Of a DNA stretch of 64,000 bases, positions 5,713 through 52,670 are shown in pieces. The first letter of the stretch is position 1, and the number at the start of each line of letters is the position of its first letter. A program made the translations under genes and the position numbers. This DNA is from Podarcis gaigeae (Eukaryota). The stretch lies in the NCBI GenBank assembly GCA_964106915.2, contig OZ066920.1; one strand, given 5' to 3'. The notes under the pieces were generated by a model. That model searched no databases and was not told where the DNA came from. It saw only the letters and a list, made by a program, of their open reading frames with translations.

Positions 5713-5972
5713 TTACTTCTTCTCCTTCTTCCCTGACTTCTTCTTGTTTCCACCTCCGGAGGCTGCAGGTTTCCCATCCCGCTTGGCTGCAGAGTTGGAG
5801 AGAGTGGCTGTGCTGCCAGGGATGTACACGTTCTGTCTGTAGTCAGGGACGTGCTGCAGGGTGAACTGGGGGCCATACCTGGTGCTGAGGCCCATTGTGC
5901 CTGCTGCTGCTGTTGCTCCTCCTCCCAGAGTAGAATTTCCATCAGGATTTGCAGCGGCGGCGGCAGCGGCTT
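5713..5972 (-). CDS. PCDHG: Protocadherin gamma constant exon 3, coding part ([19 protein letters not shown]...[28 protein letters not shown]...[10 protein letters not shown])
   Basis: Acceptor gtggtgtag|AAGCC at 5972. Hallmark [19 protein letters not shown] and Lys-rich C-terminus. 59+89+260 nt = 136 codons including TAA. Confidence 0.97.
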
Positions 5973-15208: not shown

Positions 15209-15297
15209 CATTTGCTGATGCAAGAATCATGGCTTGAAGCATTTCTGTATCAAACTGGTTGTTTGGCCAAGTCCCATTCTCATCCCCATTCTGAGAC
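15209..15297 (-). CDS. PCDHG: Protocadherin gamma constant exon 2 (89 nt, [29 protein letters not shown])
   Basis: ctttctccttag|GTCTCAGAAT...GCAAATG|gtcagt. Contains the hallmark [19 protein letters not shown]; phase is compatible with exons 1 and 3. Confidence 0.97.
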
Positions 15298-25511: not shown

Positions 25512-25570
25512 CCACTGGTTCCTGGTCTCTGGGCCTGAGAGAAACGCCAGTCTGTGTTAGGTTGTGCTTG
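25512..25570 (-). CDS. PCDHG: Protocadherin gamma constant exon 1 (59 nt, [20 protein letters not shown])
   Basis: Minus strand tttctcttgcag|CAAGCACAACCTAACACAGACTGGCGTTTC...ACCAGTGG|gtgagt. Peptide and length match the known gamma constant exon 1. Missed by the ORF track. Confidence 0.97.
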
Positions 25571-29095: not shown

Positions 29096-31531
29096 CCCAT
29101 CAGTGGGACTCTGCAAAACACTGCCTGCCTGCTCAAAGGCAAGCATGCTTTCTGCTGTAGTGGAATGACTGAAAGGTTTAACAAAAAAGAATTCGCCCTG
29201 TTCAGACATTGGAGAGAGACAAGACTTGTAGTGCTGAGCTCCAGCTCCGCCCACTTCAAGGTATCTGATAAAGCCTTCGGGATGTGGGCGCCCAGTGAAA
29301 TTTATGGTGGATTTCCTGTCTGTCCTCTTACTACAGCAGTGTGACATGAACCAGCTGGGGACACAGAGGCCAGATCTGAAGCACCTGGCCCCCACAATAA
29401 CCAACATTACGCAAGAGACCAGAGAGATGGCCACAAGAGAGATGATAAGGTAGAGAGTTAGGCTGGGGGCTCTGGAAGGTGATTTGGGGAGAAGGTCCAA
29501 GGACTTGGAAAAGTCCTGCACAGCATTATCCTCTGAGGAAATCACAAGAACCAGTGAGGCTGAGAGAGACGGCACTCCATTGTCTCTTACTTCTATCACC
29601 AACCTGTGGGACACCCCAGGCTCCCTCAATGCCCGAACAGCCCGGATCTCTCCTGAGTGGCGTTCCACTTTGAACGGGGTGGCTTCATTGGCATCCTGAA
29701 GCAAACCATAGGACAGCCAAGCATTGTGGCCACTGTCAGCATCCACAGCCACCACTTTGGTCACCAGGAATCCAGGTTCCACCGGGAGCAGAACTGGCTG
29801 GTGAAAGGCAGAGCCCTTGGAGACTTGCGGGTGCACAATCACCGGGGCGTTGTCGTTCTGGTCCACAACAAACAAGTGAAGAGTGGCTGTGCTGCTCAGG
29901 GGTGGGAAACCCGAATCCTTCACCTCCACTGCAACTTGAAAGACTTTCTCTTGCTCATAGTCAAGCATCCTGGATGTGTAAATGCTGCCATTCTCTTGGT
30001 TGATGTGGAAATAGGTCGAAATGGGTAAGCCATGATTTCCATTGTCCAGAATGGAATAAGACAGCTTGGAGTTGACACCTGCATCTGGATCTGAGGCTGA
30101 CAGAGAAAAAACTAGAGTCCCAGGGGAAGTATTTTCCTCCACATGGGCAGTGTATGAAGGGATGGAGAAAGTGGGCGCATTGTCATTGACATCTGAGACT
30201 TGAATAAATATGTTTTTGTGGGTGGATTTTTGAGGCATCCCAGAATCTGTTGCTTTAATTGTGATATTATATCCAGCAGCCTTCTCTCGGTCCAGGGGCC
30301 CATTGGTCACCAGTGAATAATGTCCCTTAAATGAAGACACCAGTTTGAACGGGATGTGCCTGGTAATCTCCAAGTGGACTTGCCCATTTTCCTCAGAGTC
30401 GTTGTCCTTTGCTTGGATCAGGGCAATGACTGTTCCTGTGGGTGCATCTTCTTGCACTGGGCTAGAGAGGGAGGTCAGCATAATCTCTGGGCGGTTGTCA
30501 TTGACATCAACAAGTTCCACTCTGATGTTGCAGTGACCCTCCATGGCAGGGGACCCCTTGTCTTTTATGTAGATAGCTATCTCGTAAGCATTGGCTTCTT
30601 CGTAGTCCAGCAGAGCTTTGGTCCTGATCTCCCCTGTCTGGGGATCCAAGCTAAATAAGTCAAGGAGCTTCAGAGGTGCGCTATTGCTGGCTTTGAGGAA
30701 ATACTCCATCTCTCCATTGGGACCTTCATCTAAGTCCGTAACATTGAGCTTAGTTACGACAGTCCCCACCTGGACATTTTCCTCCAAATAAACTTTGGAC
30801 ACTGGCGGGTCACACACAGGGGGGTTGTCATTTGCATCCAGGACGTGGACGGTCACCTGGGCAGTCCCAGACTGAACAGGATTCCCACTATCCAGAGCTG
30901 TCAGGACTAAGTGATGGACAGCGGCTTTTTCCCTGTCTAGAAGCTTCTCCAGCACAATTTCGGGCATTTTGACCCCGTCCCCCCTGACGTTAATGCTCAA
31001 GGCAAAATGTTCGCTTGGGCTAAGCTCATAGGTGGCAATGGAGTTGGAGCCCGTGTCCGGGTCTTCGGCGGCTTCCAGGCGCAAGCGGGTGCCCGGGTTG
31101 GCCACCTCGGTGATTTCCAAGGAAACCCTGTCCTTCGGGAACTTGGGGGCGTTGTCGTTCACGTCCAGGATCTCCACCTCCACCCGGTGGAGCTGCAGGG
31201 GGTTCTCCAGCACCAGCTGGAGAGGGAAGGAGCACGTGGGGCTGGAGCTGCACAGAGCTTCGCGGTCCAGCCTCTCGTGGACCAGCAACATGCCGTCGGC
31301 GAGGTTGACATGGAAGTAGTGGCGCATCCCGTCGCTGACCAGCTGCAGGCGGCGAGCGGACAAGCTCCGCACGTCCACGCCTAGGTCCTTCGCCACGTTC
31401 CCCACGGAAGAGCCTGGGTCCCGGTCCTCCGGGATGGAGTAGCGAATCTGCGCGGGGATGAGCCCTGGCAGGGACAAGACGGCAGCCACCAGCGCCAGCA
31501 GCTGCCACGACCAGCTCTGCCCGCCGCCCAT
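29096..31531 (-). CDS. Additional C-type protocadherin gamma variable exon #2 (C5-related, 812 codons), last variable exon of the cluster
   Basis: Intact signal peptide, QIRYSIPED, six EC repeats, TM (LTLYLIISLVAIS) and cytoplasmic YKSCLSPMSEQGEFFFVKP. ATG at 31531. Phase-0 donor GGG|gtaaga at 29096. Confidence 0.92.
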
Positions 31532-31910
31532 GCCTGGCTCCTTTGCGCGCAAGGATGGCCGTCTCCAGCGGCTGCCTCTGCTCCAGGTATCCAGCCCGGG
31601 GGTGGCCGCCGCTGCCTCCGGACCCCGCCGCAGTCCGGTGCCCCCCGCCCCGCCCCCCAGGTCTGCTCCTGGCGGCTCCGGGGTGACCTGAGAGGTGCTG
31701 TGCAGCGGAAAGGCGCGGGCTGCAGCTGGAGAGGCGGGAGGGGGGAGCGGGGGGATTTTAAAGCGCTCGGATCAGCAGCAGCTCATTGGCAAAAGGAGCA
31801 GCAGAGAAAAGGGGCTGTGAAATGGATACAGACAAGCGGCAATTCCCTCCTCGGCGGCGGCGGCGGCGGCAGCAGCAGCAGCAGCAGCAGAGAAGCCCCT
31901 TCTCCGAAAC
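31040..31910. promoter_or_regulatory. CpG island over the promoter/EC1 of the last extra C-type exon
   Basis: GC/CpG-dense block with a GC box (ccccgccccgcccc ~31643), a CCAAT box (31785-31789, minus) and a TTTAAA ~25 bp further downstream. Confidence 0.75.
31852..31890. repeat. Compound (CGG)6(CAG)7 trinucleotide repeat
   Basis: Directly visible. Confidence 0.95.
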
Positions 31911-32407
31911 GCACACACACCCTGCTGCTCCCCCCTCCCCAATCTCTCTTGCCACCAGTTTTCCCTCCCTGCGCTTCCCATTCCTTTCCCAGCGCAGCAG
32001 AGAGATTTGGAGGGCTGACCCAAGGGAGCCATTGGCCAGAAGAGCTCCCTTGATGCCCCTTTGGTGGAAAAGCAGGAATCGAAGGTGCAGAACGCAGACA
32101 GGGCGAGCTGCTGACGGCAGCTGTAACTCCAGGAGGGGGGAGGGGGCTACTCTACCCTCCTGCAACCTCTTCACTTCAATCCCCTCCCCCTCCCCCTCCC
32201 CCCCCCCTCATAAAGAAAGAGAGAAAAATTAGGCACACAAAGCTTTGGAGCAGATAGGTGCAATGTATCACAGCCTATGCTTGAGACCACGCATTGATTC
32301 CTCACCCCCACCCCAGGCACTTCTCCTAGGTGCAGGGAAACTCAAAAGAAAAGAAAGGTGGTGCCATGGCTGGAACAAAATAGGGACACTACATGGAAAA
32401 TTCTCAC

Positions 32408-34846
32408 CTTGCCAAAGAAGCTGGGTTCAGTGAGATTGCTGCAAGAGGCTGTCCTAAGTGTCAGATTAGGTTTCATGAATACAAATTCACTAATGTCTGA
32501 GACAGGAGAAAAGCAGGATCTGTATCCGCGGGCAGGGGGTCCAGAAGTGGCCACTTGCACTCCTATCATGGCATCTCCAGGGCTCAGCTGATAATGGCAA
32601 TGTCCCATCACATGATCTGAAGCATCTTGAAGCCCACCAGCTTTGCTTCCACAGCATCCAAAGATGGTAGATGTTGCACGTGAATCACGGCGGAGGCATC
32701 GGACTCCCAAGGCCACCAAAGCCATCAGCGAGATGGTGGAAATTGCTGCCAAGGAGATGATAAGGTACACAGTCAATGTGGGAGGTCCCTCAGTTTCCAC
32801 TGAGTGAGCTGTTAACCCCAGAAAGGTTTCAGGGCTGCTCTCCTCCAAGAGCACCATCACAGTGACTGAGGTGGACAAGGAAGGATCACCTGAGTCTTTG
32901 ACAACCAGGACAAGGTCCTGGGTAGGATTGTCTATGTCCTGGAATGCTCGTGTAGTCCTCACCTCCCCGCTACGGAGGGCCATGCTGAAAATACCAGGGT
33001 CTGTGGCTTGCTCTACATGGTAAGAGAGCCAAGCATTTCGCCCAGAGTCCAAGTCCACTGCCATAATTTTTGTGATTAAGGCATTGGCTGCAGTAGATCG
33101 TGGAATTCTGAACTGTACAACAGAATCTTTCCCAGTAAAGGGGAATCGAATCCAGGGTGCATTGTCATTCTGATCTAGGAGGTAGATGTGCACCATGATT
33201 CTGCTGCAGAGAGGAGGGGAGCCACCATCACATGCCTCCACCAGGAACTGAAAATGATTCGTATGCTCGTAATCAAAGGGGCTCTCTGCAAAGACATCTC
33301 CATTTGTTGGGCTGATGGAGACATAAGAGGTGAGGTCCTCAATCAATCCTTGCCCTGGGCTCGCCAAAACAGAATAAGACAAACGGGAGTTCTGGTCCTT
33401 ATCAGAATCTGTTGCAGAAACTCTAAGCAGTACCACTCCCACTGGATTGTTCTCTTCTATGACGGCTTCATAAAATGGCCTGTCAAAATGAGGTGGGTTG
33501 TCATTGACATCTGCCAGAGTTATGGAGAAAGAGGTGTGCTCAGAAAGAGGTGGATTCCCCAAGTCAAAGGCATAGATGGTGACGTTGTATTGCGGAGTGC
33601 TCTCACGATCTAGCTGCTCACTGGTGAGCAAGGAATACTGGTGCTCAAAGTCTTTCCGAAGTTTGAAAGGAAGGTTTCTGGGCAGATCACACCGGACTTT
33701 CCCTTGATCCCCAGAGTCTCTATCCTTGACATGTATCACAGCAACCACAGTGCCAGGAGGCGCATCTTCACCCATAGAGCTGGAGAAAGAGGTGAGAATA
33801 ACTTCAGGTGCATTGTCGTTGACATCCGTGACTTCTACCATAACACTGCAGTGTTCCTCCATGGTAGGGGAGCCCATGTCCTTAGCCTCCACTTCGATCT
33901 CATAGACATTAGCCTCTTCAAAATCCAGGTTCCCTTGGACACGGATCTCTCCCGTAGTCTCATTGATAGCAAATATCCTGCGCAAGGCTTCTGAGTTATG
34001 GCTGCTGAGGGAATACTGCACCTCTCCGTTAGGCCCTTCGTCCAAGTCTGTTGCGTTCAGCTTAATCACCAGAGTTCCTGGAGGAGAGTTTTCTACTAAG
34101 CGGGTATAATAAGTAGGTTTGTCAAAAACCGGATGATTATCATTGGCATCCAGAATGTGGACAGCAATTCGAATAGCGCTAGATTTGGGTGATATGCCCC
34201 CATCTTCAGCTGTCAGGACCAAGTGGTGGACAGCGATGTGCTCCCTGTCCAGGGGTTTCTCCAGTACTAGCTCTGGGAATTTGGTGCCATCTGTACGTGC
34301 CTTCACGTTGAGGTTGAAGTTCTCATTGGCGCTGAGGTGGTAGGTCTGTAAAGTGTTAGTTCCTACATCTGAATCCTGTGCGTGTGGGATGGGGAAACGG
34401 GCACCCAGTGCAGCCAGTTCATAGATCTGCAGAGATATTGTGCTACTTGAGAACACAGGCGCATTGTCGTTGATATCCAGAATCTCCACTTCGATGCGAT
34501 AGAACTCCACTGGGTTTTCAATAGCAAGTTTGAGATGCAAGAAACAGCGCAGGTTCTGCCCACAGAGCTGCTCCCTGTCTATTCTGTCATTGACTATTAT
34601 GATTCCAGTGTTCACATTCACAGAGAAATACTGGGAGTCAGAATCAGAAAGCACCTGCAGATTGGCAGCTGCAAGCTTTGTCACATCCATTCCTAAGTCC
34701 TTAGCAACATTTCCTACAAAGGCTCCTCGAGTGAGTTCCTCTGGGACAGAGTAACGGATCTGTGCAAAACAGTCACTCAGAAACAGACAGAAGGCAAAGG
34801 CATGCACGAGTCCCAAACGCCAGGCAGAGTTTTCTGTTCTGAGCAT
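32408..34846 (-). CDS. Additional C-type protocadherin gamma variable exon #1 (C5-related, 813 codons)
   Basis: Intact signal peptide, QIRYSVPEE, six EC repeats, TM (TLTVYLIISLAAIS) and cytoplasmic YRSCFSPVSDISEFVFMKP. ATG at 34846. Phase-0 donor AAG|gtgaga at 32408. Confidence 0.92.
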
Positions 34847-35980
34847 CTTTCTGAAATCCACAGCAGGAAGCTCTAAAACTGCAAAACAGGAGCTAAATAT
34901 AGCAGGCAGTATCTCTTTAAACCTCTGGAGGATTCACCACCTATCTCGAAGAAATATGAAATATATGAGAGGAAAAGGGTCTGTGGTCAGTGTTTACCTC
35001 TCTCATTCATTGTTTTGGTTTGAGAGAGATTGACACAGGAGGGGAGTGGTACACACCGCAGATCTTCAATGCTAACCTCCTGCTCATTGGCTGAGACTGC
35101 CTTTCTATTTATCCAATCAGCAGCCTCCTTCCCAGGACAGCAACACACGCACCAATCCAAGTCTGGAAGTTGCTACTGTGTGAAAAAGGACCGCGTAACC
35201 TGCTGTTTTTAACCTAGAGACACCAGGCTAAACGGCAGACAATGGAAAACAAAGCCCAAAATCTTGTCTGGTTTTGGCTTCTGTGCTAGCTATAGGACTC
35301 TTAGAAGCATACGCTGCAAAGAAATGTTTGCTCTAAAAGCACACTGACTCCTCACGTATTACATCCACAACAGAACAGCTGATTTGTCATTTTTATGAGC
35401 AAAGATAATTCAATGAATTCTAGGAAACAATAGTTCCTCTTACCCCATCCTAAGCTTCCAGATCAATCTCTTTTAGGTATTTCTAGGCTACCAAATTAAT
35501 ATCTAGCTTTATTTACCGGTATTTCAGAAGCCTTAGACTCCACCCTTCCAATGTAAAAACTCAAGGGAGTGATTGGTTTTTCTTAGAGAAAGAAATCTAA
35601 TTGTACGGGGGGGGGGGGGAGAGAGACTTAGCAGTTGCAAAAATACAAAAAGCTAACTTTGTGACAGGCAGCATTTGAGGGATGATTTTAAATTATCATT
35701 TTCTTATTGTTCACATCCCAGTTCCAGTCCCTGCTCCCCTACCCACTTTCTCTCATTAAAAGGCAGCAATTTGTGGGAAGAAATCAATGTAATTTTCCCC
35801 ACTCTCCTGCTCTCTCTTTCCCAAAGCGTTATGACTATGTGCTGCAGGGTTAGGTTACGAAGAAGGAGGCCCCACCCTATTCTGATAACTGATGAATCAG
35901 CCCTCAGTCAAGTTTCAAAGTGTTACTGGAGACACCAGATTCATGTGGGAAAGGAGAAAAAGGACAAAATGCCACCTCAC

Positions 35981-38431
35981 CTGCCTGGGATGGTTCAGTG
36001 TATCAGTACGAGATAAGAAAGTGTCAAAGTCTCTCGTCAGAGTACTTGGTTGAGGGTAATCCACAGGTCTCATAAAGGTGAAATCACTTCTGTCCGAGCC
36101 GGGAGAATAGCTGGCTCTATAGCACTGGCTCTGGGAGTCTGTGGGCCTGAGTGTGACCTCCATGTATTTCAATGTGCCATCTGAGTTCAGTTGAAGCTTA
36201 GGGCTGGATTGTTTGAAAACATCCCTGGCAGGAACACTACTCAGGCTGCAGCAAGAAGAACCCCTGGCTTTTTTATTCCGAAAGCATTTTGCAGACAGGA
36301 TTATGAACGTAACGAGGGACACAATGCTAACTGCCACCAGCGCAATAATCAGATAGAGGGTTAGGTCAGATTTTTCTTTGGGGTGAGTCAGGAAATCACG
36401 AGACTGGGGCCTTTCCTCAGTTACTTTATCCTCCAGTGAGACCACGATGGTGACGGTGGTAGACAAAGGTGGTTCTCCATTGTCCTTCACTAGTACAAGG
36501 ATTTTCTGTGCCGGGAGATCTGTTTCCTGGAACTCCCGAACAGTCCAAATTTCCCCAGTGTAGGGAGCCACTCGGAACAAGGAGGGGTCAGTAGACTGGG
36601 AAAGCAAGGAGTAAGAAAGCCAGGCATTGTGGCCCGAGTCTGCATCCACGGCAGTGACTTTGGTGACCACGTAGCCTGCCGATGCAGACTGAGGGATCCT
36701 CTGGATTGCAGACAGTTCCCGACCAGTCACTGGGTGCAAAACAACAGGCGTGTTATCATTCTGATCCATTATGAAGAGGTAGACAGTGACACTGGAGCTC
36801 AGTTGGGGTGACCCAGCATCATGCACCATGATGGGGATTTGCAGCACCTGCAGCATTTCGTAGTCAAAAGAGTGCTGGGCATAGACATTCCCATTGTCTG
36901 GGTTGACGTAAATGAAAGAAGAGACTGGAGCATCTTGAATTGGGCTTCCTGCCACTGAGTACGTGAGCCGGGAATTGTCCCCCTCGTCAGGATCAGAGGC
37001 CGCCACAGTGCATAGCAGAGAGCCAGGTGGATTGTTCTCCTTCAAGAAGGAGTTGTAGAAGGGCTGAGAGAAGTACGGGGCATTGTCATTAACATCTGAA
37101 ATGTTCAGCAAGATGGTGACATCTGTGGTTAGAGGTGGGGACCCTGAATCTTGGGCCGTCAACTTGATAGTGTATCGAGAAACTGTTTCTCTATCCAGCT
37201 TCTCAGAGGTAATCAAAGAATAGTGGTTTTCAAAAGATTTAATTTTAAAGGGCAAGTTTGGTGATATTTGTAAGCTCACCTTTCCATTGGCACCTGAATC
37301 TTGGTCTCGCACATTGAAAAGCCCTACCACTGTCTCTAAAGGGGTGTTTTCTGGCACGGGGTTTACCAGAGAGGTAAGGAGAACCTCTGGGGGGTGGTCA
37401 TTCTCATCTTCAACTTCCATTTGGATTACACAATGGCCTTCCATTTGAGGAATGCCCTTGTCCCTGGCCCTTACATGAAGCTCATAAAAATGAGATTCTT
37501 CGAAATCCACAACTCCTTGGACACGGATCTCACCTGTGTGGGGATCCAAGCCAAACAACTTCTGGATGGAATCAGGTGTGTGGATTCCAAAGGAATACTG
37601 TATTTCCCCATTAGAACCTGCATCAGGGTCAGTTGCATTAAGTCTGAAAAGCAAAGAGCCTACAGGGATGTTCTCCGAAAATCTTATCTTGTACAAAGGA
37701 AGGTCAAATGCAGGCTCATTATCATTATTATCCAGGACCACAATGGTGATCAGAGCTGTTCCTGACAGTACAGGATCCCCCCCATCACAGGCAGTCAGGA
37801 TGAGCTGGTGTTCCGATTGTTGCTCTCGGTCCAAAGGTTGCTCTAGCACCAGCTCAGGTAAAAGCTTGCCATCGTTCACATTCTTTACATTAAGTGAGAA
37901 GTGGGGGTTGGGGCTGAGTCGGTAGACACTGACTGCATTGGTCCCCACGTCCGCATCGTGAGCGCTCTCCAGTGGAAAGCGAGAGCCTGTGGCGGCAGAC
38001 TCTGCTATCCTCAGCACAAGCTTGGGGGTGAGGAAACCGGGGGAATTGTCATTTAAGTCCAGGATCTCTACCTCCAGGTGAAAGAGCTCCAAGGGATTTT
38101 CTATGACAACTTGGACTGGCAAAATGCACCCGGAGCTTGCTCCACACAGGGTCTCTCGGTCTATCTTTTCATTCACTATCAGAGCACCGTTGGCCAAGTT
38201 AACTGCAAAGTACCTCTTGCTCTCCTCAGAGCCCAGCCTCAGCCTGCGACGGGAAAGGTCTGCCACCGTTAAGCCCAAGTCCTGAGCCACCTTTCCCACC
38301 ACGGTGCCCAGCTCCGATTCCTCCACCACGGAATAGTGGATCTGTCCTGTAACCAACGCCCGGCTGAACAGCAAAAACAAACCCAGTACTTGCCATTTGA
38401 AAGAGGGTTGCCGGGACAAATGTGGCTCCAT
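35981..38431 (-). CDS. PCDHGC5: Protocadherin gamma-C5 variable exon (817 codons)
   Basis: C5-diagnostic N-terminus KWQVL...GQIHYSVVEESE..LGSEE..LCGAS..C.LPVQVV and cytoplasmic KQSSP.LQ..SDGTLKYMEVTLRPTDSQS.CYR. Phase-0 donor CAG|gtgagg at 35981. Confidence 0.95.
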
Positions 38432-39959: not shown

Positions 39960-42410
39960 CTCGTTTGGCTCTTGGGAAAGGCTGCAGGCCAGAAGTGTGC
40001 CTGTGCTGTTGATATCCTGCTGAGTGACTGGTGTAGCTATCCTGAAATTCCTCCCTTCTGAAAAGTGGGTCTGGCCAGGCCTTAGGAGGGTAAAAGGAGA
40101 AACAACATCTCCCCCAATGAAGGCTGTAGGGAATTCCATTTTTTCCTCCTGGCTCAAGCGTACTGAGAACGTGTCAAAGTGTCCTCCCACAGGAATAGAG
40201 TTCCTACCCTTCAGGTCGCTGGTCCAACCCACATCTGAGTGTCTTCCTTTCAATCTTTTAAGACACTTCATAGCTAAAAACACAAAGGCTAGAGCAGAAA
40301 GTCCTGAGATTGTGATTAGAGCAATAATGAGTTGCAAGGTCAGGTGAGATAGCCCTTCTTGTTCCATGCGGGACTCTCTGAGGTCTGCTGTGCCCAGCTC
40401 ATGCTCATGCTCTAGATTAAGAATCAGAGTGGCTGTGGCAGACAGAGGTGGCTTCCCATTGTCCAAGATCTCAACAACCAACTCTTGGGAAGGGGCATCT
40501 TGTTCCAGAAGGGCTCGGACGGTTCGGATCTCTCCTGTGAACGCCGAGACTTGGAAAAGGCTTGGGTCTGTGGCTTGCTGCAACTTATAAGAAACCCATG
40601 CATTCTGCCCAGAGTCTGCATCCACAGCTGTGACTTTGGTTACCAGGTAACCTCCTTGTGCAGAAAAAGGGACTGGCTGCTGGGCTAGGACCCCCTTCTT
40701 GGTTACAGGGTATACAACGAGAGGAGCATTATCGTTCTGGTCTATGATGTAGATGGAGACAGTCACATTGGCACAGAGTGGAGGAGAACCATTATCCTTA
40801 GCTTGAATCTGGAACACCAGTTGCTGGGTTTGCTCATAGTCAAATGAGCAGCCACTGTAGATAGTACCGTTCTCCATAACATAGACATAGGAGGAAATGG
40901 GCATTCCATTTATGATATGCTCCACTAACGAATAAGAGAGGTGTGAGTTCTGCCCCAGATCAGGGTCAAAGGCAGATATAGAAATGATTGGCAGCCCCAG
41001 AGCATTGTTCTCAGTTACGAGGGTCTCATATGCAGGCTGTGAGAAGTGGGGTGGGTTATCGTTCAGGTCAGATATATTTACAAGGAAGTTTCTTTGACTG
41101 GAGAGAGGTGGAGAACCAGAATCTGTAGCTGTGATCATAACTTTGTACTGTGAGATTTCCTCCCGATCTAGGGGGCCACTGGTGATCAAAGAGTAGTGGT
41201 TCTTAAAGGAAGGTACAATCTGGAAGGGGACATCTGCAGGGAGATGAAGCTGTACTTCTCCATTTCCCCCAGAATCTGCATCGCTGACTCTGAGGAGCCC
41301 TGCTGTGGTACCTGGGGGAGCATCTTCTGGTATGGTGGTGGTGAGGGAAGTGAACCCAATGATAGGCTCATTGTCATTCACATCCACTACCTCCACTAAG
41401 ATGTTGCAGTGTGCATCCATGGAAGGTGACCCTTGGTCTTTGGCCCTCACATCAATTTCATACAATGTGTCATCTTCATAATCCACACTTCCCAGGACTC
41501 TTATCTCCCCAGTCTCCTCATTAAGGCTGAACATTTTCCGGATTTTCTGTGGAGTGTGGCTGCTGAAGGAGTAGGAAACTTTCCCATTTGCCCCCTCATC
41601 ATTGTCTGTAGCTTGTAAATGTATCACAAGGGCCCCCACTGGGGCATTTTCTAGTAGGCTAACTTTGTACACCGACTGGTTAAAGACAGGTGGATTATCA
41701 TTGGCATCTATGACTGACACGAGGATCTTTGCTGTCCCTGATTTGACGGGAACTCCTCCATCCAGGGCTGTAATCACCAGGGGGTAGCGCTGCTGCTGTT
41801 CTCTATCCAGCGCCTTCTCTAACACCAGCTCAGGTTTGCTGCCGCCTTTATGTGACTTAACACTGAGGCTGAATTGTCCACGTGGACTCAGCTGGTAGGT
41901 GCTGACTGAATTCATGCCAATGTCCAAATCTTCAGCACTTTCCAGGGGGAAGCGGGCCCCCGGCATTGCAGACTCTGCTATCTCCAAATGGGTGAGACTG
42001 GTAAGAAAAACTGGGTCGTTGTCATTCACATCCAAGAGCTCAACTTCCACACGATGGGAGGCTGTTGGGTTTGCAAGTAGGAGCTCCAGATAGAGCAGGC
42101 AGTGTAAGCTGGGCCCACAAAGCTGCTCTCGGTCCAGCCGTTCTTTCACGACCAAGACACCATTTGGCACCTTGGCTTCGAAGTACTTTTCAGCAGAGCC
42201 AGCCATGATCTGCAGCTGTCGGGAGACCACCCGGGCAGCATCTAGACCCAAGTCTTTAGCCACATCCCCAACAAAGGCCCCAGGAGCTAACTCCTCAGGA
42301 ATTGAATAACGGAGCTGGGTCATCTCTCCAGCACACTGGAGAGAGACAGAAACCAAAAGCAAAGCTCTTACTTGCCATGGCAGGAGTAGTCTTTCTTCCA
42401 GAGACAGCAT
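39960..42410 (-). CDS. PCDHGC4: Protocadherin gamma C-type variable exon, gamma-C4-like and divergent (817 codons)
   Basis: Intact signal peptide-6EC-TM ORF lying between C3 and C5. Shares C4-like strings FDYEQTQ, NAWVSY and DLRES...EG.S.LTL. ATG at 42410 (MLSLEERLLLPWQV). Phase-0 donor GAG|gtgagg at 39960. Protocadherin identity is certain; C4 orthology is only moderately supported. Confidence 0.7.
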
Positions 42411-43079
42411 AATGTCGCCAAAATTTCCTCTTCCTTTGCTGGACCTCTGTCCTCTCTGATTCCAGCACAGCCAAGGAAACAACACAGAATCCCGGGTTAG
42501 ATCGTGCAAGGGATGAGAAAGCGGCGCACCATCTGCATCTTTTCTCTGTTTTTCTTCCACAGAAAACAGCGGCGGTGCCTAGTCCGTATCGGAATCAAGA
42601 GGGGAGGAGCTTTGTTGTCCATCAAAGCAGATACAGGGCTCCTGGAATCAAGGAAGTGCCTGGCTGTTTGCAATGGACCACCCATTCTCCCCCTCCCCAG
42701 CTCCAGCAATGGTGTGGGGGAGGTCTTAAAGCGCCAGTGCAAATGTTGAAGAAGAGCTGGGAGCCCATTCGCCAGCTGTCAGTGACTGGATTTCCCAAGA
42801 TAATTATATGAACAATAAATCCTATGTCATTACAAGCTTTTGAATTCATTAATGAATGTCACAAGCATTTAAATTCAATAATGAACACTCTTTGTTTGGA
42901 ATGGTTGGGGTTATAAGCTAAACCAGCAAACTGCATATTTTGCAGATTTTTTAAAAAACAGAATGCAACAAACACCAGTGGCTGCACAATTAAGTGATAT
43001 ACTGCCATTTGCTGGATATAAGATCACGTTAAAAGACCCATTGATTGTCTGCCTGAATTTCCTTTAAATGAATGGCATT

Positions 43080-50225: not shown

Positions 50226-52670
50226 CTCAGAGGACACCAGAAGCCTCTTATTTGTGCTTATTAGCTGGTTATATATTGCAGGGTCACATCTTGTGATAGT
50301 GCTCTGGCGGCTCCCCATAGGGCTGGGAGCAAAGGGCATTTTGTACAGAAGTTCACTCTGGCGAGAGTCCGTGGTGAGGACCTGCTGGTAGAAGTTTGGA
50401 GGAGTAAATCCACTCCGCACAGTGTCTATGTGGTTGAAAGGCCCCGGGGTTCTATAAAGGGAGCTTCTGGAGGCTTTGAATATATCCTTGGATTGCCTCC
50501 ACTTGTAAAATTTATAAATCCCCACCCCAACCACGGTGACAAAGAAGGCCACTGAGATCAAGATGACAGCAATGATTAAATAGAAAGTCAAGTGCTTCTT
50601 TGTTTGGGGTGTAGTGGACACAGCAGTCAAGTCTGTCAGTGTCTCCCTAGATGTCTCTGCTACATCTACAGCAAGGGTCACTGTGGAGGACAAGGCAGGC
50701 TCCCCATTGTCTTTTATTAAGATGAGCAATGTTTGCTTGCGAGAATCTTCCTCTTGCAGAGAACGAGCTGTGCTTATCTCCCCAGAATGCAGCCCCACAG
50801 TGAACAGCCCTGGGTCAGTGACCTGAAGGAAGGAATACGAGAGCCAGGCATTGTAACCAGAATCTGCATCCCAGGCCACAATTTTTGTGACCATGTAACC
50901 AGGGCTGACTGTGGGTGAGATGACTTCTGAGAGCAAAGAACTGTTGTTTGAGTTTGGGTATAAGAGCCTGGGTGCATTGTCATTCTGATCTGTGACAAAA
51001 ACATTGACAGTGATGTTAGTGGCGAGAGGCGGGAGGCCGGCATCACGAACCTGGACCACTAGCCTGAACTCCATGGTGCCCTCATGGTCCAAGGGGACTA
51101 GGACATATATGCTGCCATTTTCCCGGTTAATAGAAAAATACCTGCCCGCCAAGTCTCCTGAGGACATGGGACTATCCAGGATGGAGTAGGAAAGGTGGGA
51201 ATTCCGGTTCAGATCCGGGTCAGAGGCACTGATGTTAAAGATCAGGGTCCCTGGAAGGTTGTTTTCCTCCACGTACACATCATAGGAGGATTGTGGAAAT
51301 TTAGGAGGGTTGTCATTTACATCAGACACTTTAACCAGTATTTGCTTTTCTGCCATGAGTGAGGGTGTGCCTGCATCCTGAGCTGTGATGGTGATGTTGT
51401 ACTCAGAGACAAGTTCCCTGTCCAAGGGTCCTTTGGTCTGTAAGGTATAATAGTTTTTAAGGGAAGAGCTGAGGGCAAAAGGGATCCCAGAAGGTATAAA
51501 GCAATTTACTAGGCCATTATCACCAGAGTCCTGATCCGTGACACTCAGCAACGCAATCACAGTCCCTGGAGCCGCGTCTTCTGGTATTGGGCTGTACACC
51601 GACGTCACTGTTATTTCTGGGGTGTTGTCGTTCACATCCACAATCTCTACCAGCACTTTGCAATGAGCGACACCAGGATTTGAACCCTTATCTTTTGCCT
51701 GGATATAAATCTCATAAAATTTGGCTTCTTCAAAATCCAGCAACCCCTTCAGCCTCAGTTCTCCAGTGGCAGAGTCTAGGGCAAAGAGCTGTCGGATTCT
51801 GGCAGGGGTGTGACTGCTGAAAGAGTACACAATCTCCCCATTGGGGCCTTCGTCCAGGTCGAAAGCTCTGGTTTGGACAACCAGGGTGTTCAAGGGTGTG
51901 TCTTCTTTCACGCTGGCTCTGTAGATGGACTGGTTGAAGACAGGGGCGTTGTCATTTGCATCCAGGACGTCAACCAGCACCTGCAAGCTGGCCGATCGGG
52001 GTGGGGTCCCTCCATCCATCGCCGTGAGAACCAGCTGCACTTCCCGCTGCTGCTCCCGGTCCAGCTCTTTCTCCAGCACCAGCTCCGCATACTTCGTCCC
52101 GTCGCCTCGCGTCTGCACGTCCAGCACGAAGTGCGGGTTGGCGCTGAGCTGGTAGGTCTGCAGAGAGTTGCTTCCCACGTCGGGGTCCTGCGCGCTCTCC
52201 AAGGGGAAACGCGCCCCGGGGGTCACAGACTCGCTGATCTCCAGCTTCATCTGCTTGCTCTGGAAAGCCGGGTCGTTGTCGTTGACGTCCTGGATCTCCA
52301 CCGTCACGCCGTACAGCACCAGCGGGCTCTCGGCCACCACCTCCAGGCTCAGCGCGCACGGCGAGAGGGCCCCGCAAAGTTCCTCGCGGTCGATGCGCTC
52401 GCTCACCAGCAACTTCCCGCTGCCCAGGTCCACCTCGAAGTACTTTCGTCCGCCGCCCGACACCACGCGGAGGTTCCTGGCGGGCAGCTGGGCGAGATCC
52501 AGGCCCAGGTCGCCCACCACGTTGCCCACCGAAGAGCCCCTGGGCATCTCCTCGGGGATGGCGTAGCGCGTGGCGGCGAGCGCCCGCTCCGAGACGCCCA
52601 GCCACAGCCAGAAGCCCACGACGGGCAGCCATCGCGCTCTCGGCCGGCTCCTTCCCGCGGCGCCTCTCAT
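50226..52670 (-). CDS. PCDHGC3: Protocadherin gamma-C3 variable exon (815 codons; splices to constant exons, ~950 aa product)
   Basis: Six cadherin repeats with DRE/DxNDN motifs. C3-diagnostic strings: KYAELVLE, YIQAKDKG, EITVTSVYSP, SSLKNY and the cytoplasmic KWRQSKD..SSLYRTPGP..LTTDSR..SRQ..CDP. First ATG at 52670 (the ORF track begins at an upstream TTG). Phase-0 donor GAG|gtaatg at 50226/50225. Confidence 0.95.

Follow-up and report, generated by a model that had tools for sequence, protein, structure and literature searches.

The names gamma-c6 and gamma-c7 come from Jiang et al. (2009, PMC2764143), who described five gamma C-types in both the anole and the coelacanth and performed RT-PCR on 'selected' variable exons only. 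In their tree, c4, c6 and c7 all stood without a human ortholog. The coelacanth set (Lm gamma20-24) equals that of the lizard in number, c7 corresponding to Lm gamma24 and c4 to Lm gamma22; however, it lacks a c6 ortholog and contains an unmatched gene, Lm gamma21. In mice, gamma-C4 is described as the sole isoform essential for survival and the only one needed for neuron survival (PMC6957209), a role presented as acting through the variable cytoplasmic domain (PMC12559083). The mammalian gamma-C3, gamma-C4 and gamma-C5 genes share with the lizard genes the domain layout, the 3' position before the constant exons and the constant domain.

The window analysed here, a 64-kb stretch of Podarcis DNA, displays the same genes, order and clades as Anolis, the differences being the species and the c7 donor, which in the Anolis TPA model is placed later than the GTAAGA site of the window. 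The five-member gamma C-type set and both genes were already named in 2009 and are not new, a possibility that the earlier note had itself raised, and the value of the locus as a genomic discovery is accordingly small. Of the six open reading frames of at least 200 aa in the window, five are cadherin exons on the minus strand; the first of these also contains the sixth, a shadow frame. The exons are ordered c3-c4-c5-c6-c7-constant, as in Anolis carolinensis, so that c6 and c7 occupy the last variable positions before the constant exons, the location of the C-type group. The three constant exons (Table 1) are in frame and encode 135 aa followed by a stop. No further variable exon or pseudogene relic was detected in the window using tblastn (single 27-aa match, E 0.027), and the remaining long frames outside the cadherin exons look like noise by eye.

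Table 1. Coordinates of the protocadherin features and candidate signals in the window
Feature	Position	Strand	Remarks
Pcdh gamma-C3 variable exon	50226..52670	-	815 codons; highest-scoring of the five exons against mouse gamma-C3
Reptile gamma-c4 variable exon	39960..42410	-	817 codons; mammalian gamma-C4 orthology undetected
Pcdh gamma-C5 variable exon	35981..38431	-	817 codons; highest-scoring of the five exons against PDB 4zpo
CCAAT-box-like GCCAATGAGC upstream of gamma-c6	35082..35091	-	motif match, putative
Pcdh gamma-c6 variable exon	32408..34846	-	813 codons; signal, EC1-6, TM, variable cytoplasmic domain
CCAAT-box-like GCCAATGAGC upstream of gamma-c7	31781..31790	-	motif match, putative
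Pcdh gamma-c7 variable exon	29096..31531	-	812 codons
Candidate internal donor GAA/GTAAGA	29585..29590	-	after codon 647 of gamma-c7, EC6, before TM
Candidate internal acceptor AG	29198..29199	-	before codon 779 of gamma-c7
Gamma constant exon 1	25512..25570	-	59 nt
Gamma constant exon 2	15209..15297	-	89 nt
Gamma constant exon 3, coding part to stop	5713..5972	-	

Both c6 and c7 consist of a single exon of ~2.4 kb ending at an in-frame, phase-0 donor, AAG/GTGAGA after 32408 for c6 and GGG/GTAAGA after 29096 for c7, each of which fits constant exon 1 at 25570. The open reading frames and donor sites bear out the earlier description of two intact, full-length exons of 813 and 812 codons. In predicted annotation, the c6 exon ends at the same junction in the lacertids Podarcis muralis, P. 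raffonei and Zootoca, and the c7 exon in Zootoca and Pogona. Each exon contains one Cadherin_2 and five Cadherin stretches according to Pfam, that is six cadherin repeats, with intact DRE/DxE and DxNDN motifs, and a single transmembrane segment near 689-719 or 687-725 by hydropathy. The signal peptides claimed for both genes stand in part: c7 shows an N-terminal hydrophobic peak, and that of c6 falls below the hydropathy cut-off and is assigned by where it lies, just ahead of the mature QIRY start. Any two of the five variable exons are 43-48% identical, and per-domain identity in EC1-4 between c6 or c7 and any paralog is 44-56%; the two genes are therefore not recent duplicates, in agreement with the earlier reading.

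On sequence grounds, c6 and c7 are the lacertid orthologs of anole gamma-c6 (DAA06629.1, 89.7% identity) and gamma-c7 (DAA06630.1, 90.8%). The named anole proteins are the best matches, fall in the same clades and follow the same gene order. A phylogeny was computed with IQ-TREE on EC1-3, using 57 rows from which mammalian C-types are absent. Bird 'PCDGM' models, likely chimeras as judged by split identity, were kept out. The models Laticauda P0039, Terrapene P0267 and Serinus P0023 are chimeric past EC4; the first two contributed EC1-3 alone, while the third stayed out of the tree. A row labelled Bos alpha-C1 grouped with alternate alphas, which leaves the tree without any alpha-C. The c6 clade (11 rows, two Pleurodeles included) and the c7 clade (10 rows, Rhinatrema included) are each supported at 100/100 (starred), and starred branches set them apart from the A/B/beta rows. 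Neither gene is of A/B type or a detectable ortholog of C3, C4 or C5. In the same tree c7 groups with C5 (98/89) and c4 with one Latimeria protein (98/96); the branch joining c4, c5, c6 and c7 reaches only 92/86 and c3 falls outside. As both clades span squamates, turtles, crocodilians and birds and have amphibian members, both genes predate the amniotes. The antiquity proposed previously is thereby upheld, and the view of c6 and c7 as special to one lineage is not. The c6 orthologs found here in salamander, turtle, crocodilian and bird contrast with the absence of any in Jiang et al. (PMC2764143). Fused gene models from alligator and canary repeat the order c3-c5-c6, and models from crow and turtle repeat c6-c7.

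Upstream of the two genes, the motif GCCAATGAGC has its only two occurrences in 64 kb, one lying -236/-245 from the c6 ATG and the other -250/-259 from that of c7; the shuffle mean is 0.30 and 4/100 shuffles reach two occurrences, a figure flattered by the choice of the pattern by eye. This is the putative match to the 'own promoter motifs' of the earlier note. Another motif, GCTTTAARA before c4, c5 and c7, was dropped as near chance (5 matches, shuffle mean 1.95). In a 9-mer comparison, the CSE-like GCCGCTGTT precedes c3 and c4 only and is absent before c5, c6 and c7; this 9-mer is read here as a putative CSE. Mouse C4 and C5 lack a CSE. An unlikely alternative is that c6 and c7, although C-type by descent, are chosen stochastically like the A/B genes and add to the random barcode, as could be imagined from the Xenopus C-like gamma2 genes, whose expansion gave an array of 23 members marked by a promoter motif of its own, and from the failure of the c6 promoter to qualify as a CpG island (o/e 0.29). 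The lack of the CSE-like 9-mer before c6 and c7 speaks against such a choice, as do the CpG island at the c7 start region (GC 0.67, CpG o/e 0.68) and the single-copy, one-to-one occurrence of c6 and c7 across the sampled amniotes, in contrast to the A/B genes with their high turnover.

Expression of c6 and c7 governed by cell type, and not by stochastic choice, is the reading that is favored here, as reasonably probable. Transcription would almost certainly start from their own, apparently CSE-less promoters and be followed by splicing to 25570. The products would very probably be type-I surface proteins whose trans dimers, homophilic and antiparallel, form through EC1-4 with a specificity distinct to each. 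They are predicted to form cis dimers through EC5-6/EC6 without an alpha-like block, and hence to be of the carrier type, which is probable for c7 and slightly favored for c6. In gamma-B7 numbering, the c7 cis interface displays H/Y532, K558, V560, V562 and A570 in 14/14 sequences and L555 in 13 of the 14. That of c6 has F532 in 14/16 and L555 and K558 in all 16, with M, T, I, V or G at position 560, and the alpha-type R560 occurs in none of the c6 or c7 sequences. Isoform-specific signalling through the conserved variable cytoplasmic domains may or may not occur, with even chances. By analogy, both proteins are likely to act as nerve-cell self-recognition tags. The 'deterministic' expression and separate binding specificities put forward in the earlier note are likewise argued from analogy. 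In the mostly non-subscription literature covered, Jiang et al. was the single source on gamma-c6/c7, with no newer C-type survey and no functional study, which agrees with the earlier description of these genes as functionally uncharacterised.

Among the best 120 of 8000 candidates retrieved in each of the c6 and c7 searches, named mammals account for 12/120 rows in one and 2/120 in the other, and reach at most 45% identity. Amphibian orthologs are present in both lists, and six further high-identity matches are nearest to squamates or birds. Both genes were likely lost in mammals, as previously suggested, to judge from these best-120 lists, monotreme genomes lying outside their scope. No mammalian C-type was recognised among the matches listed for a c4 EC6-TM-VCD query against 50%-identity representatives, where giant cadherins dominate. 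Mammalian C3 and C5 have clear orthologs in the window: the C5 exon scores 459 bits against PDB 4zpo, which we take to be mouse gamma-C5 (other four exons, 314-339), and the C3 exon 433 bits against mouse gamma-C3 4zi8 (others, 295-309). It is quite improbable that c6, c7 or reptile c4 is genuinely orthologous to mammalian gamma-C4 but has diverged fast, even though reptile c4 sits at the C4 position between C3 and C5 and mouse gamma-C4 is the top-scoring clustered chain of EC1-4 length for c6 and c7. Similarity to mouse gamma-C4 over EC1-4 is flat across nine queries (lizard c3 465, c4 459, c5 468, c6 442, c7 435; turtle c4 474, c6 448, c7 482, the highest; coelacanth 458 bits) and singles out no C4 orthogroup, whereas true orthologs exceed the others by ~120 bits on a shorter chain. 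This flatness leaves three lizard genes without detected mammalian orthologs and the mammalian C4 unmatched here, in keeping with the Jiang tree. The set cannot be described as C3, C4 and C5 plus two, as the earlier note had it, since the second exon has no detectable mammalian C4 ortholog.

That c6 and c7 are lineage-specific C5 duplicates, or decaying or silent exons, is scarcely credible despite their 'gamma-C5-like' database labels, which hide both genes, as identity to c5 is merely 44%, intact orthologs extend from lizards to amphibians in the tree, and c6 EC1 shares 98-99% identity among non-lacertid squamates and 82% with the salamander. The preferred reading, held with high confidence, is that c6 and c7 are orthologs of the anole genes, were probably lost in mammals and probably work as ordinary C-type gamma-protocadherins. 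This leaves one tractable question, whether the neuron-survival function is specific to C4 or an older C-type property: no C4 ortholog was detected in sauropsids, which retain c6 and c7 instead, and the presence of both in birds makes the question addressable in chick. It is unlikely that two proposals hold jointly, namely that c6 or c7, given the lack of a detected gamma-C4 ortholog in reptiles and birds, exerts the neuron-survival role of this essential mammalian isoform through its own cytoplasmic domain, and that the EC6 donor of c7 and the acceptor beyond its transmembrane segment (Table 1) were kept since the lizard-turtle ancestor to produce a TM-less secreted or lumenal decoy.

Nothing relevant to TM-less or internal-donor protocadherin isoforms was found in the literature, within the same mostly non-subscription scope. 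Precedent for such isoforms exists in human Pcdh alpha and gamma. The candidate internal EC6 donor of gamma-c7 is found again in the annotation of lizards and turtles, and its use would yield a TM-less form; the junction at this donor is used in 13/22 short annotated models, and the internal acceptor position in two turtle models.

The 3' end of the Pcdh-gamma cluster lies on the minus strand of the window, where the ORF listing contains five intact variable exons, each followed directly by a phase-0 donor. The two exons downstream of gamma-C5, reported as additional C-type genes in an earlier note, were placed there at exact coordinates. Both are intact, their products (813 residues for gamma-c6, 812 for gamma-c7) each displaying six cadherin repeats (EC) and one transmembrane (TM) segment. 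They are also, as claimed, markedly unlike each other and C5, with a pairwise identity of 43-48% among all five variable exons. No relic exon was found between these exons in the 64-kb window. The 11 kb upstream of gamma-C3 (52671-64000) hold neither variable exon nor relic, and the A/B array is situated outside the window.

Features of the gamma C-type locus (window positions)
Feature	Position	Strand	Remark
C3 variable exon	50226-52670	-	donor directly after 50226
CSE-like 9-mer	42565-42573		upstream of reptile c4; identical to c3 copy
Reptile c4 variable exon	39960-42410	-	donor directly after 39960
C5 variable exon	35981-38431	-	donor directly after 35981
gamma-c6 variable exon	34846-32408	-	donor directly after 32408
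gamma-c7 variable exon	31531-29096	-	donor directly after 29096
Candidate internal donor GAA/GTAAGA	29591/29590	-	codon 647 of gamma-c7; same hexamer as main donor
Candidate internal acceptor, pyrimidine-rich AG	29198/29197	-	turtle acceptor position in gamma-c7
gamma constant exon 1	25570-25512	-	3' of variable exons
gamma constant exon 2	15297-15209	-	3' of variable exons
gamma constant exon 3	5972-5713	-	3' of variable exons

Gamma-c6 and c7 are real, old and already named genes. The anole record DAA06629.1, entitled 'TPA_inf: protocadherin gamma c6 isoform [Anolis carolinensis]', matches the first at 89.7% identity, and DAA06630.1 ('gamma c7') of the same species matches the second at 90.8%. 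The suspicion that they might already be catalogued was well founded: Jiang et al. 2009 (PMC2764143) named anole c6 and c7, the only mention of these genes found in the literature searched, and the five-member set (c3-c7) is therefore already in print. According to that paper, the coelacanth likewise has five gamma C-types (Lm gamma20-24), of which Lm gamma24 pairs with c7 and Lm gamma22 with c4, no human ortholog of c4, c6 or c7 was found, and the group is described as shaped by differential loss.

A phylogeny of EC1-3 was computed with IQ-TREE, using 57 rows hand-picked from 620 aligned units and excluding redundant entries and likely chimeric bird models; its C-type rows are all non-mammalian. 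The c6 clade (100/100, 11 rows) comprises squamates, turtles, alligator, birds and two Pleurodeles, and the c7 clade (100/100, 10 rows) squamates, turtle, crocodile, birds and Rhinatrema. A protein from Latimeria groups with the six-row c4 clade (98/96), and the sister group of c7 consists of C5 together with two teleost rows (98/89). Starred branches separate the A/B/beta rows; support for a wider C group is low (92/86) in this taxon set. Since amphibian members fall in both clades, c6 and c7 are, on this tree, both older than the amniote split. Amphibian orthologs appear among the matches listed at 1022-1035 bits, and named mammals occupy 12/120 rows for c6 and 2/120 for c7, at 36-45% identity (best 120 of 8000 candidates). 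Of the proposal that these are ancient paralogs lost in mammals, the age thus stands; the loss is supported, not proven, because only those best candidates were considered and monotreme genomes lay outside the search.

In clustered protocadherins (cPcdh), every variable exon is transcribed from a promoter of its own and joined to the constant exons by cis-splicing, and the proteins bind their own kind in trans through EC1-4 and dimerise in cis through EC5-6 (review PMC7811963; Goodman 2022, PMC8901172); c6 and c7 would be driven, spliced, bound and dimerised in the same manner. Donors of the lacertid annotation models, themselves predictions, coincide with those in the window. The EC1-4 domains are 44-56% identical to any paralog versus 71-90% (c6) and 66-88% (c7) to turtle, crocodilian and bird orthologs, a pattern consistent with fixed, distinct specificities. 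EC1 of c6 (34463-34762) is unusually conserved, with 93% lizard-turtle identity versus 77% for c7, 77% for c4 and 83% for c5, about 90% to birds and crocodilians and 82% to salamander, and may point to a conserved partner. The cis-interface positions of c7 form the carrier-type set H/Y532, L555, K558, V560 and A570; c6 shares L555 and K558 but has F532, and its residue 560 varies among M, T, I, V and G; the alpha-type R560 occurs in neither among the positions compared. Surface delivery is poorly predicted by cis dimerisation (May and Gaudet 2025, PMC12337331).

Two patterns picked by eye divide the promoters: a 9-mer resembling the CSE promoter element is confined to c3 and c4, and a CCAAT-like 10-mer to c6 and c7. 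Non-stochastic expression of c6 and c7 is favoured, not demonstrated, because both lack the 9-mer, as mouse C4 and C5 lack a CSE (PMC7811963). The same absence counts against stochastic expression, which is unlikely but stays a live alternative given Xenopus, where CSE-less C-like genes form an expanded array (PMC4978886). Reptile c4, in contrast to CSE-less mammalian C4, carries the 9-mer and may be CTCF-regulated.

The five lizard proteins were scored against solved mouse protocadherin chains. Gamma-C3 singles out the first exon, at 433 bits against 295-309 for the other four, and chain 4zpo, which we take to be gamma-C5, the third (459 vs 314-339). Gamma-C4 singles out none (465, 459, 468, 442 and 435 bits), and scores similarly with turtle c4 (474), c6 (448), c7 (482) and a coelacanth protein (458). 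Owing to these flat scores, the label 'C4-like' given to the second exon had to be abandoned: by bit score, it is reptile c4, not a detectable ortholog of mammalian gamma-C4, in agreement with Jiang et al. 2009 (PMC2764143). Bit scores do not equal a tree, and a hidden orthology to gamma-C4 keeps a small probability. The most interesting point that remains is that gamma-C4, required for mouse survival (PMC6957209) through its variable cytoplasmic domain (PMC12559083), has no ortholog seen in sauropsids. The species in which orthologs of reptile c4 turned up are limited to squamates, turtles and coelacanth. In alligator and canary, fused models have the order c3-c5-c6 without a c4 piece, so the gene may have been lost in archosaurs.

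Among 22 database proteins combining the constant domain with a short variable part, 13 have a c7 part that breaks off in EC6, at the position matching codon 647, and is joined to the constant region in six lizard (6 species) and five turtle models and to an acceptor just past the TM in two turtle models. The remaining nine are three bird models (codon 536), three at 628-631, two 5'-truncated and one of c6; codon 631 has no credible donor in the window (score -6.4). The internal donor hexamer is made of rare codons (GTA 3/78 Val, AGA 5/33 Arg), and donor-like internal sites of equal or greater strength also occur in c5 and c6. The predicted product is in frame and TM-less, a form suggested by automated models only, and may simply be degraded because the truncation takes away the final EC6 strands. 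Human Pcdh alpha and gamma also have forms that lack the TM; the literature searched yielded no report of TM-less protocadherin forms. Annotated c7 forms of 237 aa in Anolis and Pogona (models P0210 and P0219) start just inside the TM end, at residue 709; they would be cytoplasmic-only and may be artefacts or products of an internal start.

With the constant region attached, the c6 exon matches a Podarcis muralis model at 99.4% identity; the figure is 99.2% for P. raffonei and 98.8% for Zootoca, and the source is, on this identity, a Podarcis-like lacertid. Constant exon 3 opens with a poly-Ala run (5930-5972); compared with the models of Podarcis and Zootoca, the spliced window proteins have one extra residue, probably through a repeat-length difference at this run.
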